Shown: piece by piece, positions 12,301-18,305 of the stretch
How positions within the stretch are numbered: the stretch's first letter is position 1
Layout: the number at the start of each line of letters is the position of its first letter
NCBI GenBank assembly: GCA_048941015.1
Contig: JBHLNZ010000043.1
Span: 1-26,809, forward strand
DNA length: 26,809 bases
Direction of reading: 5' to 3'
Origin: Promethearchaeota archaeon
GTDB taxonomy: Archaea > Asgardarchaeota > Lokiarchaeia > Sigyniarchaeales > SOKP01
Made by a program: the position numbers and the translations under genes
The notes under the pieces: model-generated
Told to the model about the DNA's origin: nothing
What the model saw: only the letters and a program-made list of their open reading frames with translations
The model's database searches: none

Positions 12301-12608
12301 TTTCAACTTTTCATAAGAAAAATTGCTAATATTTACTAGTGATATGATCAGTTATAAAGTTTTAATATTGTTAAGGATAATTGACATTTTGTTCAATCGC
12401 ATTCATTCTAATTTGGCAATATTTTTTAAATTTTTTTAATTTTATTTGCAATGACCTCTCTCTCTGTCTATAAAATAATCTTCCTTTTAAATGGAATATT
12501 CTTTCTTTAAAAACACAGTTCTAATTTCTTCTTTTATACAAAAGGATAGAATTTAGAAAATCGTCGGTGTATTACTGTTTTAGTTCCAGCAAATCATCAA
12601 TTTTTGTG

Positions 12609-13373
12609 ATGACGTTTGATTCGGGGTTCAGGGTCTATAAGAAATACAATGATATTCCACCCATTTCAAGTGGAGACACAACGCTAGATGAACTATTGGG
12701 AGGAGGAGGTTTCCATAAAGATTTAGTATATCTTTTATATGGAGACAAAGAAACCAAAAGAAGGATTACAAACGTTTTGCTTACAACTGCCGTAAATGCA
12801 CAAAAATCTTTTGTTAATGGAGGATTTGGAGATAGAATTAAGGTTGCGTTTGTCGATGCCAACAACCATTTTAACCCGTATAATGTAGGGAAATATGCTG
12901 TTTCACAGCATCTATCTCCTAAGCAAGTATTAGAGAATATTCAAGTCGCTCGAGCGTTTACTTGGGATCAAATGGTCGAACTTTTGGAAAACAAACTCTC
13001 GAAGTTAGAGCACATTAAAGTAGTATTAATCTCGGGGATTACTACTTTATTTCACGGTTATGAAAAACAAACATTTGAGGATTTGTTGAAAGCAATAAGT
13101 GGAATCAAAAAAATACTTGAAAGAACAAACCCTCTGATTGTCATAACTGCGCCTCTGAATGAATACAGTTCATTTAGGCCCAAAGGGGGAAAGATCCTTT
13201 CTCATTTTGGAAATGTTCTGATACTAATCAGAGAAGGAAAAAGAAATGTAGAATATCACCTCGTTCAGCATCCATATTTAGCAGAAAACAGCTTGCTAAA
13301 ATGGAAACCCAAGGAACCTAAGATGAATCTCTCAAAAGCCTTGAAAAACACCACACTAGATTACTGGATTTAA
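12609..13373 (+). CDS. Inactivated RadA/Rad51-family ATPase paralog with C-terminal PIP-like box
   Basis: RadA core motifs ISSGDTTLDELLGGG, AFVDANNHFNP, LENIQVARAFT, GGKILSH. Walker A is replaced by GDKETKRRIT and Walker B reads VVLISG (Asp lost). No N-terminal HhH domain. ATG 12609 is preferred over the GTG at 12567. Ends KNTTLDYWI. Confidence 0.85.
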   Translation: MTFDSGFRVYKKYNDIPPISSGDTTLDELLGGGGFHKDLVYLLYGDKETKRRITNVLLTTAVNAQKSFVNGGFGDRIKVAFVDANNHFNPYNVGKYAVSQHLSPKQVLENIQVARAFTWDQMVELLENKLSKLEHIKVVLISGITTLFHGYEKQTFEDLLKAISGIKKILERTNPLIVITAPLNEYSSFRPKGGKILSHFGNVLILIREGKRNVEYHLVQHPYLAENSLLKWKPKEPKMNLSKALKNTTLDYWI

Positions 13374-13452
13374 ATTGTATTTGATATTACCTTTTTGGGA
13401 GATTTATAGAGAATCTAAATACTTCTTAATTTACCCATAATAAGGCATAATC

Positions 13453-13466
13453 CTAAGGTTTAAAAA
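13453..13466 (+). promoter_or_regulatory. Putative BRE/TATA promoter of the KAP microprotein gene
   Basis: ctaagg-TTTAAAAA, with the TATA box at 13459-13466, about 72 nt upstream of ATG 13538. Confidence 0.5.
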
Positions 13467-13537
13467 TGAAAACAATAATTATAACCAGTAACAAAAGGAA
13501 ATTAAATTAAATTAAAAAAGAAGAGATGTAAACCACT

Positions 13538-13651
13538 ATGGCTAAAAAGAAAGCACCCGCTAAAAAAAAGCCAGCACCAAAAAAGGCTCCTAAGAAAAAG
13601 GCTCCTGCAAAAAAGGCTCCTAAGAAGAAAGCCGCTCCAAAGAAGAAATAA
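13538..13651 (+). CDS. 37-aa Lys/Ala/Pro-only basic microprotein (histone H1 C-terminal-tail-like)
   Basis: MAKKKAPAKKKPAPKKAPKKKAPAKKAPKKKAAPKKK* (19 K, 10 A, 7 P, 1 M). Synonymous codons vary among repeats. Upstream GAGATG RBS-like element and TATA box; T-rich tract downstream. Below the ORF-track cutoff. Confidence 0.85.
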   Translation: MAKKKAPAKKKPAPKKAPKKKAPAKKAPKKKAAPKKK

Positions 13652-13736
13652 AAAATGATATCAAGAAGTATGTTAATAATTAAAAATGATTTTTTTCTAA
13701 CGTTTACTTTTTTATAAATTTATTACTTTTATAATC

Positions 13737-14162
13737 TTATCTTTTTTTGTAGATATTAGGATCCTTTTTTTCAAGAGTCAAAGAATCACCGCCATATCTA
13801 ATTTTTCTTCCTTTATAGTATAGATCTGACTTTTCTTCACAAATTTCATTCCACTTTGCAATACCGAATTTTTTAATCATTAAAAGGTTGTAAATTTTTG
13901 AGTTATGAGGCATAAAGATTTCAAAATTTACAATTGGTTGTAGCTTTTCACAGGGAAACTCATTACACTCATAGCAAAAATTATAACCTCTACTTGTTAC
14001 GCATTCGTAAGTTTTACATACAGGAAAATCTTTTATTTGCCCCTTGTGTTCTCGACACCCTTTACAATTATAAACTTTTACGCCAGGGCATCGTTTACAA
14101 TAAATTCCACATGGTGCGTGATCATTAAAATATAAACTCATAAAGCAATACCTATTACTCAT
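13737..14162 (-). CDS. DUF3795-like Cys-rich metal-binding protein
   Basis: APCGIYCKRCP...CKGCR...C..YEC...FCYECNEFPCEKL cysteine pattern. Confidence 0.8.
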   Translation of the reverse strand: MSNRYCFMSLYFNDHAPCGIYCKRCPGVKVYNCKGCREHKGQIKDFPVCKTYECVTSRGYNFCYECNEFPCEKLQPIVNFEIFMPHNSKIYNLLMIKKFGIAKWNEICEEKSDLYYKGRKIRYGGDSLTLEKKDPNIYKKR

Positions 14163-14230
14163 TTTTAAGATATATTATGATAATTCTTCTTTTTTATAAA
14201 GATTATTCTTATGGAGGATAATAGTTTCTT

Positions 14231-15202
14231 TTATTTAATACCTAGGAGTTTAGCAGCATTATCATAAAGCCACTTTTTCTTTACACTTTCTTTTAATGGC
14301 AAATTCATAACTTCATCAGCTAATTGTTTAATTGACATTCCCATAAACAGCCATGTTGATCCAAAAAGGATTTTATCCTGTAACACTGAGTTTCCATAAT
14401 GGATTAAGGTTTCCCAGCCCGTTCCTTCCATTCCTATATATTTAGGAAGGTAAGAAGCAAAATCTATATAGATATTTGAATTTTTCCAAGCAACTCCTAC
14501 TAATTCATTTACCCAAGGCCATCCTCCATGTCCTGCTATCATCTTCAACTCTGGAAAATCTTGAGCCACAATATCTAAATAGATTGGTCTTTCAACTTCC
14601 ATTGTATTTGTTGAGTGATTGATTGAGAGATGGAACCATATAGGTATATCAAGTTCAACGCACTTTGAGTAAATAGGGTACATTTTAGCATGATGAGGAG
14701 GAATACCAAACATGAATGGTCTAATTGCTATTCCTCTTAGTCCTAAATCATAAGATCTATTAATTTCTCTTATCGCTTCCATTTTTTTAAGAGGATCAAT
14801 GCCAGCAAATCCAATAAATTTATCAGGATAATTTTGAACAATATTGGCATAATAGTCATTAGGAAGGCCAGCAATACCGCTTGGAGTTTCTTCATCAAGA
14901 TTGAAAATTATTGCTTTTTCTACACCCATTTTATTAAGCTGGTCAACAAATTCATTTACGCTCATCGTCAAATTTCTTATTTTCGGCAAATATGGCTCGA
15001 TAGCATTTTTTAACTCAGTTGAACTCATGGATATTTTCATCTCATATAGTTCATTGGCAGTAATTCCTATTAAAGGCGCAACTCTTGGGCCAAAAACATC
15101 TCTAAGATATTTCGACATTTGAGGTGGTAATGATACTAAAAGATCAATAAAAACTTCTTCTGTAGGGACATAACATAAGGTATCAATGATTCTATAATCC
15201 AT
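14231..15202 (-). CDS. Amidohydrolase superfamily (Amidohydro_2-like) protein with degenerate metal site
   Basis: NDYYA..V..YPDKFIGFAGIDP, LGLRGI, YPIYSKCVELDIP.WFH, IAGHGGWPW, LFGSTW, LYDNAAKLL. ATG at 15202 chosen over the upstream GTG. Confidence 0.85.
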   Translation of the reverse strand: MDYRIIDTLCYVPTEEVFIDLLVSLPPQMSKYLRDVFGPRVAPLIGITANELYEMKISMSSTELKNAIEPYLPKIRNLTMSVNEFVDQLNKMGVEKAIIFNLDEETPSGIAGLPNDYYANIVQNYPDKFIGFAGIDPLKKMEAIREINRSYDLGLRGIAIRPFMFGIPPHHAKMYPIYSKCVELDIPIWFHLSINHSTNTMEVERPIYLDIVAQDFPELKMIAGHGGWPWVNELVGVAWKNSNIYIDFASYLPKYIGMEGTGWETLIHYGNSVLQDKILFGSTWLFMGMSIKQLADEVMNLPLKESVKKKWLYDNAAKLLGIK

Positions 15203-15363
15203 CTTATTCACTTTGAAAAAATATCTATAATCTTACAATGTTAAAGCAATATATTAATTCTTCTAAGTATTTTTTTCATAACAAAAAAAAATTCAAAAAT
15301 CAAAAAATTCGCAACGTATTTTTTTTTTAATTCTATAGGCAACTCTTCTTCTTGGTTATTATT

Positions 15364-15636
15364 ATGGGTAGAACGGTACCTTCTTTTAGACCTGCGTTAG
15401 AGCATGAGATTGAGAGTTGGAAGGATTTTAAAAGAGCACTTAGACCTGAAGAACAAAAGATCTTTGACAGATTAATGAATTTTGCCCGAATCCACGCTGA
15501 TGCGGGTAGCTTAGGTGCACGCCCTATGCTCTCAGAAGTTCTCTTTATCTCTTTTGCAATTGAACAAGAAAAAAAAATTACATCCTTAGAAAAGAAACTT
15601 GATGAATTAGAAAATTTGGTTAAAGGGAATGATTAA
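15364..15636 (+). CDS. PolB2-associated small helical protein (arCOG07300-like)
   Basis: MGRTVPSFR...W..FKRALR.EEQ..FDRL...AR.HA.A signature, lying directly upstream of polB2 (3-nt gap). Confidence 0.8.
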   Translation: MGRTVPSFRPALEHEIESWKDFKRALRPEEQKIFDRLMNFARIHADAGSLGARPMLSEVLFISFAIEQEKKITSLEKKLDELENLVKGND

Positions 15637-15639
15637 AAA

Positions 15640-18042
15640 TTGGATTTGCAGAATAATTTTGATGGATGGCTTTTAGACATTTCTCTTTATAGGAATGGTG
15701 TAATTCTTTGGGTAAAAGATTTAAAAGAAAAGGTAGTTCGAAAAATCTACCAAAAATATTGTCCGGAATTTTTTGCCGTTCCAAAACCTAGTGCTGGAAA
15801 TGATGTAAAGAGGTTAAAGTACATTCTACAACAAAATTCCAATATTTCCCGAATAAGAGTGTGTGAGAAATATGTAAAATTAGAGGATCACAAAAAAAGT
15901 AAAGTTTTTGGATTATCTGTTTCAAAACCTTCATTATTCAAGAAAATTATTAAAGAAATTGATGAAATTGGCCTCTTTACACTGTATAATACAGATCTTC
16001 CTATTACTCAAATGTACTTCTATGAAAATGATTTATTTCCAATGGCTCTCTGCAATTTTAGGGTAAAGATCGAAAGAAACAAGCAAAAAGGAAAGACAAT
16101 GCATCTTACTTCTTTAGAACTTAAAGATAACAACGAGCTTCTCTTCTATGATCTACCGCCTTTGAAGGCTGTATGGTTGGATGTAAAAATTCAACAGAGA
16201 GGCATAAGATATTATTACAATGACCCTCTTAATTACGCTCTTATTAGTATTGTAGAAAATGATGAGGAAAATGTTCCACGGGCTGATGGGTACACAAAAC
16301 GTACGATTCTAATTGACGAAGCTGACGAAGCTGAAACACTGAAAAAGATTAGTAAAGCAATTGAAAAGCTTGATCCTGATATTATTCTCACTCACCACGG
16401 AGATGAATTTATGTTTCCCTATTTGGCTGCTCGAGCATCAATAAATCACGTATCAAAAGACTTATACTTCTCACGAAACAAAAAGTCTTTAAAAAATTGT
16501 TTTTTCAACCTTTCAGGAAATTCTGATCACTATATGTCTTATGGTATAATACGACGTCGTTCGAGGACACAAGTATATTTCACTGGCAGAATTCATCTGG
16601 ATACAGCAACTTATGCTAGCCTTCATTTTACAGAAGGTAATATTCCCGGAGTCATTGAAGTGGCACGTATTTCAAGAATCCCTATGCAGAGACTCTGTAG
16701 AGTGACTATCGGGGGTGCACTCCAGTCTATCCAATATTATAATGCTTATAAACTCGATCATCTCATTCCTCCCTTTAAAAAGAGTCCTGAAGACTTTCGT
16801 TCTGGGATGGACCTAATTAAAAGCGATCGCGGAGGCCACATTTTTGAGCCCCTGATTGGAGTTTTTCATCATGTAGTTGAATTAGATTTTTCTTCAATGT
16901 ACCCCTCTCTAATGGCAACATACAATATTTCTTCAGAAACTATAAACTGCCAATGTTGTAAGGATGATGGTACCGGAATAAAAGTACCAGGATTAAATTA
17001 TCATATTTGCTCAAAGAGACAAGGGATAATTTCAAAATCAATTAGTCTCCCTTTAATAAAGCGACTAAAGTGTAAAGAATATGTACGAAAAACAAATAGT
17101 ATTCGCTATAAATTTACTGATACTGCACTAAAATGGGTTCTTGTTGTAAGTTTTGGTTATCTAGGGTTTAAAAATGCTCGTTTTGGAAAAATCGAGGCGC
17201 ATCAAACGGTTTGTGCTTTTGCTCGTGATCTTCTTATGCGTTCTGTAGAAATTGCAGAAAGTTATGACTGTGAAATAATTCATGGAATTGTAGATTCGAT
17301 GTGGCTTAAAGACAAGAAACGTAGAACAATAGAGGAATTTGAAGAAATTACTAAACAGATTGCAAAAGAAATAACTGAGCATACAAAAATACCTATGAGC
17401 TGGGATGGTAGATTTGACGTCATATCGTTCCTTCCATCAAGAGCAGAACCCGATATCCCCGCCCTAAGTCATTACTGGGGTATCAAAAGTAGCGGCGAAC
17501 TAAAGGTAAGAGGTATAGATGTTAGACGCAGAGATGTGCCAAAAATAGTGAAAGAAGCTCAATATGCATTTATCAATGTATTCAAAGGAGCAAAAACACA
17601 AAAGGAATTCATGGAAAGAATGCCTGAAGTTAAAAAGAAACTTTTGCAATATGCCAATAGGATTCAAAATGGGAGCGTTTCTAGAGATGAGCTTACAATT
17701 CGTCAAAGAATCTCAAGGAGACCATCACATTATAAGGTTAATTCTTACCAAGCCGTTGCTGCCAAACAGCTAGAACGTTCTGGTGCCATAGCATCGCCTG
17801 GAAAGAATGTAAGATATATCATTCTCAATGCTGATGCTGATCCAAATTTTCCAGAGAAGAAAGTAATACTTTCTGACTTATATGACAGTAATAAACATGA
17901 ATATGATAAAAAAAAGTATATAGAACTTCTGAAAAGGGCATTTGAAAATCTTTTTCCTTTTGAATTTCCTGAACTTGAGGCGTTATTGAAATTAGATTTC
18001 AGTAAGAAACTTAATCAAAAAGATTTATCTTGCTTCACTTAA
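15640..18042 (+). CDS. polB2: Family B DNA polymerase, PolB2 (Dpo2) subfamily, proofreading-deficient
   Basis: Motif A ELDFSSMYPS followed by NISSETINCQCC; motif B ALKWVLVVSFGYLG; PolB2-type motif C HGIVDS instead of YGDTDS. Degenerate exonuclease motifs (WLDVKI, HHGDEFMFPYL). C-terminal QKDLSCF. Confidence 0.92.
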   Translation: MDLQNNFDGWLLDISLYRNGVILWVKDLKEKVVRKIYQKYCPEFFAVPKPSAGNDVKRLKYILQQNSNISRIRVCEKYVKLEDHKKSKVFGLSVSKPSLFKKIIKEIDEIGLFTLYNTDLPITQMYFYENDLFPMALCNFRVKIERNKQKGKTMHLTSLELKDNNELLFYDLPPLKAVWLDVKIQQRGIRYYYNDPLNYALISIVENDEENVPRADGYTKRTILIDEADEAETLKKISKAIEKLDPDIILTHHGDEFMFPYLAARASINHVSKDLYFSRNKKSLKNCFFNLSGNSDHYMSYGIIRRRSRTQVYFTGRIHLDTATYASLHFTEGNIPGVIEVARISRIPMQRLCRVTIGGALQSIQYYNAYKLDHLIPPFKKSPEDFRSGMDLIKSDRGGHIFEPLIGVFHHVVELDFSSMYPSLMATYNISSETINCQCCKDDGTGIKVPGLNYHICSKRQGIISKSISLPLIKRLKCKEYVRKTNSIRYKFTDTALKWVLVVSFGYLGFKNARFGKIEAHQTVCAFARDLLMRSVEIAESYDCEIIHGIVDSMWLKDKKRRTIEEFEEITKQIAKEITEHTKIPMSWDGRFDVISFLPSRAEPDIPALSHYWGIKSSGELKVRGIDVRRRDVPKIVKEAQYAFINVFKGAKTQKEFMERMPEVKKKLLQYANRIQNGSVSRDELTIRQRISRRPSHYKVNSYQAVAAKQLERSGAIASPGKNVRYIILNADADPNFPEKKVILSDLYDSNKHEYDKKKYIELLKRAFENLFPFEFPELEALLKLDFSKKLNQKDLSCFT

Positions 18043-18134
18043 TTAAAGGCTGTAATTGATTTTAATTTGTTATATTTAATTTAGAAAATTTTCACTCTGT
18101 ATATCTTTTTTTTGGACTAAATTAATTTTCAATT

Positions 18135-18305
18135 ATGTCATCAGATTCAATATCATATTATGATTGGTCATTAAGTTTTAAGAAAGATGATGGCAGTCAT
18201 AACTCTTTTGTAAAACATACAAGATCGAGAAGTATGAATTCAATTGGTCTTCCTGATGATGAATTTAAGGATTATTTAAAAAAGTGGAAAGAAGAACACC
18301 TTTAG
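18135..18305 (+). CDS. 56-aa hypothetical protein (not in ORF track)
   Basis: MSSDSISYYDWSLSFKKDDGSHNSFVKHTRSRSMNSIGLPDDEFKDYLKKWKEEHL*. It fills the gap between polB2 and the giant gene, is less AT-rich than its flanks and ends in an amphipathic helix. Confidence 0.55.
   Translation: MSSDSISYYDWSLSFKKDDGSHNSFVKHTRSRSMNSIGLPDDEFKDYLKKWKEEHL

Follow-up and report, generated by a model that had tools for sequence, protein, structure and literature searches.

A probable Lokiarchaeia-type copy of the archaeal PolB2 mutasome, with PIP-like tails on iRadA and PolB2 and a split, two-promoter layout

We analysed a stretch of 26,809 nucleotides from a Promethearchaeota archaeon (contig JBHLNZ010000043.1), referred to below as the window, and concluded with good confidence that positions 12609-18042 hold a Lokiarchaeia-type copy of the published archaeal error-prone PolB2 mutasome. 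Three plus-strand genes make up the module, in the order iRadA, PPB2 and PolB2 (Table 1), and each sequence feature that defines a PolB2 mutasome was found in them. Pfam and motif alignments confirmed the sequence-only reading of this DNA, which had described three co-oriented genes encoding a dead RadA, an MGRTVP protein and a proofreading-deficient PolB2. That reading had also proposed a PCNA-tethered damage-tolerance module; we judged the identity and the idea to be right, but not their newness. Makarova, Krupovic and Koonin (2014) had already described an operon of PolB2, arCOG07300 and an inactivated RadA and proposed that the products form a complex (PMC4104785). Timinskas, Timinskas and Venclovas (2025) gave the components their names, PolB2, PPB2 and iRadA, and built a model of a heteropentamer of PolB2, iRadA and a PPB2 trimer, in which the MGRT arm with Arg3 and Arg9 makes the key contact and iRadA binds a motif of PolB2 that is like the Rad51-type oligomerisation motif (PMC11791011). 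The same study tabulated Lokiarchaeota operons with the IVD motif and modelled a Lokiarchaeota PCNA:iRadA pair.

The core module is published, and the genes described here are a further Asgard example; because the core finding repeats that work, by itself it would be only one more such case. This analysis established the gene identities, the loss of catalytic residues, the conservation of the tails, the synteny and a common promoter box. Our additions to the published work are modest: a clade-wide state with two tails, a split layout with two promoters and a linked small gene.

iRadA, PPB2 and the C-terminal tails

The window iRadA scored far under the cut-offs of the RadA and RadB models. In a HMMER alignment it matched only residues 103-336 of Pyrococcus RadA (1pzn), indicating that the N-terminal domain is missing. 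The same alignment placed GDKETKRR at the position of the RadA P-loop GEFGSGKT (Walker A) and a Ser at the position of the Walker B Asp. By these comparisons, iRadA is a RadA/Rad51 core that has lost its N-terminal domain and both Walker motifs and is predicted to be ATPase-dead. Orthologues were present in 67 of the 68 family genomes. An AlphaFold2 model made from a shallow alignment was poor (mean predicted local distance difference test score, pLDDT, 54.9; residues 185-254 below 50) and uninformative on the tail.

The arm of the window PPB2 contains MGRT with Arg3 and Arg9, matching the published definition of a helical protein of about 90 aa (PMC11791011), and this N-terminus was conserved across all family loci. 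An alternative TTG start lies at 15352. PPB2 orthologues carry PF26485/DUF8156; the window PPB2 itself gave no match in the Pfam scan.

Both large proteins end in motifs that resemble a PCNA-interacting (PIP) box, as had been noticed from the sequence alone. The reference motif for PIP-box clamp clients was of the Qxx[LIM]xx[FYW][FYWLI] type at a flexible terminus; iRadA ends in NTTLDYWI and PolB2 in QKDLSCFT, and alignments showed that both tails are conserved. The iRadA pattern N..[LIM][DEN].[WFY][FLIVW] was present in 119 of the 120 nearest database homologues and in 28 of the 32 family loci with both genes complete, and the sub-motif [LI]D.W[FL] occurred in all 32. For PolB2, the pattern Q..[LIMV]..[FWY] was found in 118/119 database homologues and 31/32 family loci. 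The two strict patterns occurred jointly in 27/32 loci, a count that rose to 31/32 when position 1 of the iRadA motif was relaxed. Column entropy was 0.1-0.2 at N247, D251 and W253 of iRadA versus up to 3.1 in the preceding linker; the corresponding values for PolB2 were 0.0 at Q793 and 0.2 at D795 and C798 versus 1.1-2.4.

A loose C-terminal PIP pattern fitted 34 of the 2799 open reading frames (ORFs) of the genome (1.2%), so two such tails in one module are unlikely to have arisen by chance. Part of these matches are false positives, for example the terminal helices of alpha/beta-hydrolases. Six paralogues whose N-termini look alpha/beta-hydrolase-like by eye (C50:93426-97782 (-) and C123:52115-52933 (+); five in tandem) have C-terminal helices that fit the loose pattern and illustrate the false-positive rate. 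Comparable tails were found on the genome's own clamp clients, namely FEN1 (QVSLDSFF), a second FEN1-like protein (QKSLLSF), RNase HII (KKITEFF), the other PolB (KKMDAFF) and the Y-family polymerase (QTSLIKFV). The QKDLSCFT motif of PolB2 aligned with KKMDAFF at the end of the other PolB. The genome contains one PCNA gene. The single PCNA of the family (L001:1066-1872 (-), L080-L108) has a conserved, strongly acidic C-terminal extension that ends in MDEF, or in LEEY in genus g4.

In more distant Asgard families (L048-L050, L067) the iRadA motif persists, but PolB2 has lost its own. In the sister family f2, two genomes (L047, L054) retained both tails; together with their retention throughout the family, this indicates a clade trait and not a one-off. 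One family locus, L016 (G071:C14), has a PolB2 tail that departs from the motif directly after the Q (STQRNRRYGNDKD), probably through a frameshift or a sequencing error at the very end. Orphan second iRadA paralogues, 43-53% identical, were observed in family genomes L045, L046, L068, L069 and L070; they keep an [LI]D.W[FLI] tail with no PPB2 or PolB2 near, and inspection of the L045 and L046 neighbourhoods found no PPB2- or PolB2-like genes. A tail kept by an orphan iRadA fits a generic partner such as PCNA. In another Asgard family (f9, L055-L066), we noted RadA-like proteins (about 260 aa; 25-32% identity with iRadA) that have no PolB2 within 9 kb and contain a conserved TTLPLS[HY]FL near the C-terminus, possibly a further clamp-type tail of a RadA paralogue.

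Because iRadA and PolB2 both end in conserved PIP-like tails, the PCNA trimer probably anchors their complex at two sites. Alternatively, the motifs might bind something other than PCNA, serving as latches within the complex or as handles for RPA, RadA or the 56-aa protein described below. The iRadA motif lacks the canonical Q, its invariant N/D/W pattern goes beyond what a generic PIP box requires, and the loose pattern also fits unrelated C-terminal helices such as those of the six hydrolase-like paralogues. Nevertheless, we regard this alternative as unlikely: both motifs lie at the extreme C-terminus behind variable linkers, in a layout like that of the clamp clients encoded in this genome; the motif of PolB2 can be aligned to the end of the other PolB; the orphan iRadA copies retain theirs; and published models of homologues dock motifs of this kind, from iRadA as well as from PolB2, into the pocket of PCNA, the Lokiarchaeota pair included (PMC11791011).

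The PolB2 polymerase

Motif A of PolB2 is intact (LDFSSMYPS) when compared with Pfu PolB and the genome's other PolB. Motif C reads HGIVDS (IVD), whereas both reference proteins have YGDTDS, and motif B deviates from KxxxNSxYG. In the exonuclease domain, the HMMER alignment showed HGDEFM for Exo II where NGDSFD is expected; by-eye reading only suggested that DxE of Exo I has become DVK and YxxxD of Exo III YxxxH. A search found 1498 PolB2 homologues, the nearest 120 being 74-88% identical. Taking iRadA and PolB2 together, the nearest 120 database homologues were 69-88% identical and were labelled Lokiarchaeota, Promethearchaeota or similar. These features point to a putative proofreading-less family-B translesion polymerase of the 'extender' kind.

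An alternative, which was originally put forward for the PolB2 group, is that PolB2 here has no catalytic activity and serves as a scaffold or regulator. In its favour, Ile takes the place of the first motif C Asp, motif B is off consensus, and inactivation was predicted by Makarova et al. (PMC4104785). Against this, the motif A Asp and the second motif C Asp were invariant in 32 aligned homologues, and sequence conservation was very high, with a mean column identity of 87%. Sulfolobus Dpo2, which carries the same IxD change, is a robust polymerase: it extends mismatches and lesions without proofreading and is induced by damage through Orc1-2 (PMC8764526, PMC6061795). We therefore consider an inactive PolB2 very improbable and retain an active extender as our putative assignment.

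Split locus, shared promoter box and small56

For synteny, about 19 kb around each of 36 family iRadA loci was fetched. PPB2-PolB2 lay within 10 kb of iRadA in 35 of them, and the remaining locus stops at a contig edge, so the co-location of the RadA paralogue with polB2 holds across the family. The three genes were co-oriented in the order iRadA, PPB2, PolB2 in 32/35 loci; in the other three, PolB2-PPB2 was inverted relative to iRadA. The gap between iRadA and PPB2 ranged from 43 nt to about 10 kb and held a DUF3795 gene alone (15 loci), DUF3795 plus an amidohydrolase (11 loci) or nothing recognised (6 loci). These counts indicated that the split is the usual state in the family and that the junction accepts insertions while the linkage is retained. 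The claim that the split conceals the link from operon searches was therefore overstated, the more so as the published survey lists interspersed operons.

Three interposed genes had been reported in the window. Two are solid, the DUF3795 and Amidohydro_2 genes, and nothing indicates that either belongs to the module. The number three holds only if a 37-codon Lys/Ala/Pro ORF, presumably the third gene meant, is counted; this ORF occurs elsewhere only in the closest relative, L008, and is not a module member.

All three units, iRadA, PPB2-PolB2 and a downstream gene for a 56-aa protein (small56), have an upstream box of the common form TYAGAAAAY..GTA..TATA. The iRadA box was present in 35/35 family loci, mostly 57-58 nt before the ATG, as TTTYAGAAAATTGTCGG.GTA followed by a TTTTATTTT-like stretch. 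The PPB2 box, AATYAGAAAAT..N..GTAT..T-rich, occurred wherever PPB2 is separated from iRadA, and a degenerate version is retained in some arrangements with iRadA adjacent. The small56 box lies 54-57 nt upstream of the ATG in 19 of the 23 copies for which a box was located. The orphan iRadA of L045 has a weak version at 58 nt. In L054 (G285, sister family f2), where the box scores 20.7 bits at 60 nt, the iRadA frame extends nearly to PolB2 and a separate PPB2 was not detected, which may reflect an iRadA-PPB2 fusion or a loss of PPB2.

The 3.59-Mb genome (7.16 million positions) was scanned with a matrix derived from the sites of other genomes, without the window's own. The top three sites were those of iRadA (28.1 bits), small56 (27.8 bits) and PPB2 (22.4 bits); the next scored 19.7 bits, and a reversed-sequence control gave no site above 20 bits. 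Since orthologous promoters would score well anyway, cross-class scoring was added. With a matrix from iRadA promoters of other genomes only, the small56 site ranked 3rd and the PPB2 site 46th of all positions; a PPB2-only matrix ranked the small56 site 20th and the iRadA site 500th, and a small56 matrix ranked the iRadA site 191st and the PPB2 site 489th. Other sites above 18 bits (6 versus 1 in the reversed control) were rejected, as they had no properly spaced downstream gene. Box scores were low upstream of RadA and the remaining Rad51 paralogues, and likewise at the PCNA and Y-family polymerase promoters. DUF72 is a family reported to be enriched beside polB2; a gene with a DUF72-like N-terminus by eye (C138:6436-7305 (-)) has a borderline box-like site of 17.0 bits, within the range of control hits, 186 nt upstream.

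Because the promoter of each unit carries the same upstream box, the mutasome units are probably switched on together by a common regulator. That the split has uncoupled iRadA from PolB2, so that iRadA acts elsewhere (for example as a RadA mediator) and its linkage is leftover synteny, could be argued from the variable gap, the separate iRadA promoter and the orphan paralogues, but we give this idea hardly any credence: the linkage has outlasted many different insertions and one type of inversion, the iRadA and PPB2 promoters have in common a box with essentially no other occurrence in the genome, and published models assign iRadA a specific binding site on PolB2 (PMC11791011).

The small56 gene was found in 58 of the 71 family genomes, its best copy commonly on the iRadA contig, and was detected in none of the five genomes of genus g4 and none of ten module-bearing genomes outside the family. 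Among 35 loci surveyed, 23 had small56 within 4.3 kb of PolB2/PPB2, placed directly downstream, 1-4 kb downstream, as a tandem duplicate or, in inverted loci, divergently from PPB2. A word-indexed search with small56 returned 3 proteins and a profile search 186 cluster representatives; most of the 150 listed were 44-70 aa long and about a dozen were longer. Invariant residues cluster in an N-terminal SYYDW.L.F and a C-terminal NS[IL]G...WK..NL helix, with a variable basic linker between them. The structure model showed a single confident helix (residues 41-55), and searches of Pfam and the ESM Atlas gave no match. A metagenomic homologue of 234 aa (P0374) has about 180 extra residues between the conserved ends, and this insertion in the linker suggests that the ends act as separate modules. 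A second, diverged small56 paralogue lies in the same genome (C43:21554-21709 (-)) and has a weak box-like sequence at 57 nt (8.2 bits). The contigs of three divergent members were too short for informative context.

The shared box and the persistent linkage make a role of small56 with the mutasome our best guess, likely as an accessory or a regulator. A fuller reading, which we hold only tentatively, is that, within this one Lokiarchaeial family, a compact three-unit regulon (iRadA, PPB2-PolB2 and small56) is marked out by the single box, and that small56, a previously undescribed protein family with two short conserved ends, may regulate or adapt, in this lineage specifically, a mutasome with two tethers to PCNA. 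Several points weigh against our overall interpretation of the module. The ranking matrix was derived from orthologous promoters, which leaves only the cross-class ranks as independent evidence. Copies of the PPB2 box do not have the TGTCGG core, and the genome-wide matrix search for a wider regulon yielded no further convincing member. As to the tails, position 1 of the iRadA motif is N and not the canonical Q, and the last residue of the window PolB2 motif is T, compared with I in most orthologues. Finally, the related genomes behind the family counts are not independent samples.

Table 1. Positions of the module genes, their tails and promoter boxes, and the interposed genes in the window
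Feature	Positions	Strand	Description
iRadA promoter box	12551-12588	+	TTTAGAAAATCGTCGG.GTA, then T-rich TATA-like stretch; ATG 58 nt from box start
iRadA	12609-13373	+	254 aa; Pfam Rad51, 61 bits, 1e-16
iRadA PIP-like motif NTTLDYWI	13347-13370	+	tail KNTTLDYWI-stop
PPB2-PolB2 promoter box	15298-15335	+	same A-rich box, GTAT, T-rich layout
PPB2 (arCOG07300, Pfam DUF8156)	15364-15636	+	90 aa; ATG at MGRTVP; N-terminal arm MGRTVPSFRPALE
PolB2	15640-18042	+	800 aa; Pfam DNA_pol_B and exo1
PolB2 PIP-like motif QKDLSCFT	18016-18039	+	tail NQKDLSCFT-stop
small56 promoter box	18079-18116	+	second-best site of the genome, 27.8 bits
small56, 56-aa protein	18135-18305	+	conserved near PolB2; no known family
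37-codon Lys/Ala/Pro ORF, interposed	13538-13651	+	follows iRadA directly; composed solely of Lys, Ala and Pro beyond the Met
DUF3795, Cys-rich, interposed	13737-14162	-	Pfam PF12675; between iRadA and PPB2 in 26/35 loci
Amidohydro_2, interposed	14231-15211	-	Pfam PF04909; interposed in 11/35 loci

Proposed mechanism and comparison with known systems

From these observations we infer that the proteins form a complex, that it binds PCNA and that damage induces it, as well as whatever role the 56-aa protein has. In the mechanism that we propose, DNA damage would cause a regulator to act on the box, a trigger suggested by analogy with Sulfolobus Dpo2, and the regulator would turn on iRadA, PPB2-PolB2 and small56 together. 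PolB2, iRadA and a PPB2 trimer would assemble as a heteropentamer, as modelled for homologues, with the MGRT arm of PPB2 inserted between the two large proteins. The iRadA and PolB2 tails would dock on PCNA protomers, and PolB2, which lacks proofreading, would extend termini opposite lesions, perhaps once a Y-family polymerase, of which the genome has one gene, has carried out the insertion.

Double tails kept family-wide have a bearing on the way in which trimeric PCNA positions a heteropentameric translesion polymerase, and the split module means that operon-based surveys under-count the linkage. The common box and the linked 56-aa gene are handles for finding an Asgard damage-response regulator. 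If true, the three-unit regulon would amount to an SOS-like switch, open to direct testing, in archaea closely related to eukaryotes.

The module resembles the published PolB2 mutasome in its IxD motif C, dead exonuclease, MGRT arm and RadA core without N-domain or Walker motifs, and also in its gene order iRadA-PPB2-PolB2 (group 1a, interspersed type) and its C-terminal clamp-binding-type motifs. It differs from it in several respects. PCNA/beta-clamp motifs were reported on iRadA, less frequently on PolB2 and "rarely in both" (PMC11791011), whereas here iRadA and PolB2 both carry one family-wide. Splitting by opposite-strand genes is the norm here, in contrast to the 'only rarely interspersed' operons of that survey. 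Each unit has a separate promoter with a common box, which the linked lineage-specific 56-aa gene has too.

The polymerase is of the same PolB2 type as Sulfolobus/Saccharolobus Dpo2, with the same active-site variant. As in the Orc1-2 regulon with its DNA damage-responsive element (DDRE), a short conserved element lies directly upstream of the core promoter and is common to repair genes that are functionally linked. In its 5' half (TTTYAGAA) the box is similar to the DDRE core TTTCRGWD (box TTTYAGAAAAY; DDRE hexamer ANTTTC), but the C that defines ANTTTC is variable, being present at 18/35 iRadA, 21/32 PPB2 and 2/23 small56 sites. No conserved ANTTTCRG was found further upstream of the box in orthologous loci; a DDRE match 354 nt upstream of iRadA (GGTTTCAGATTC) was conserved in no orthologous locus and was dismissed as chance. 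The genome has three Orc1/Cdc6 paralogues, none adjacent to the module.

A parallel with the bacterial ImuA-ImuB-DnaE2 system had also been drawn from the sequence. It stands as an analogy and not as homology: this system and Pol V (UmuD'2C-RecA) likewise combine an error-prone polymerase with a RecA-fold partner and clamp tethering, but their polymerases, the C-family DnaE2 and the Y-family UmuC, come from unrelated families, and ImuB is a dead Y-family adaptor. The module in the window contains no ImuB-like gene, and its polymerase belongs to family B and is not a DnaE2. A further likeness is to eukaryotic Pol zeta (Rev3-Rev7). The accessory subunits differ, and the resemblance, which is not a claim of module orthology, lies in a B-family, proofreading-less, damage-linked extender that belongs to a multisubunit complex on PCNA.

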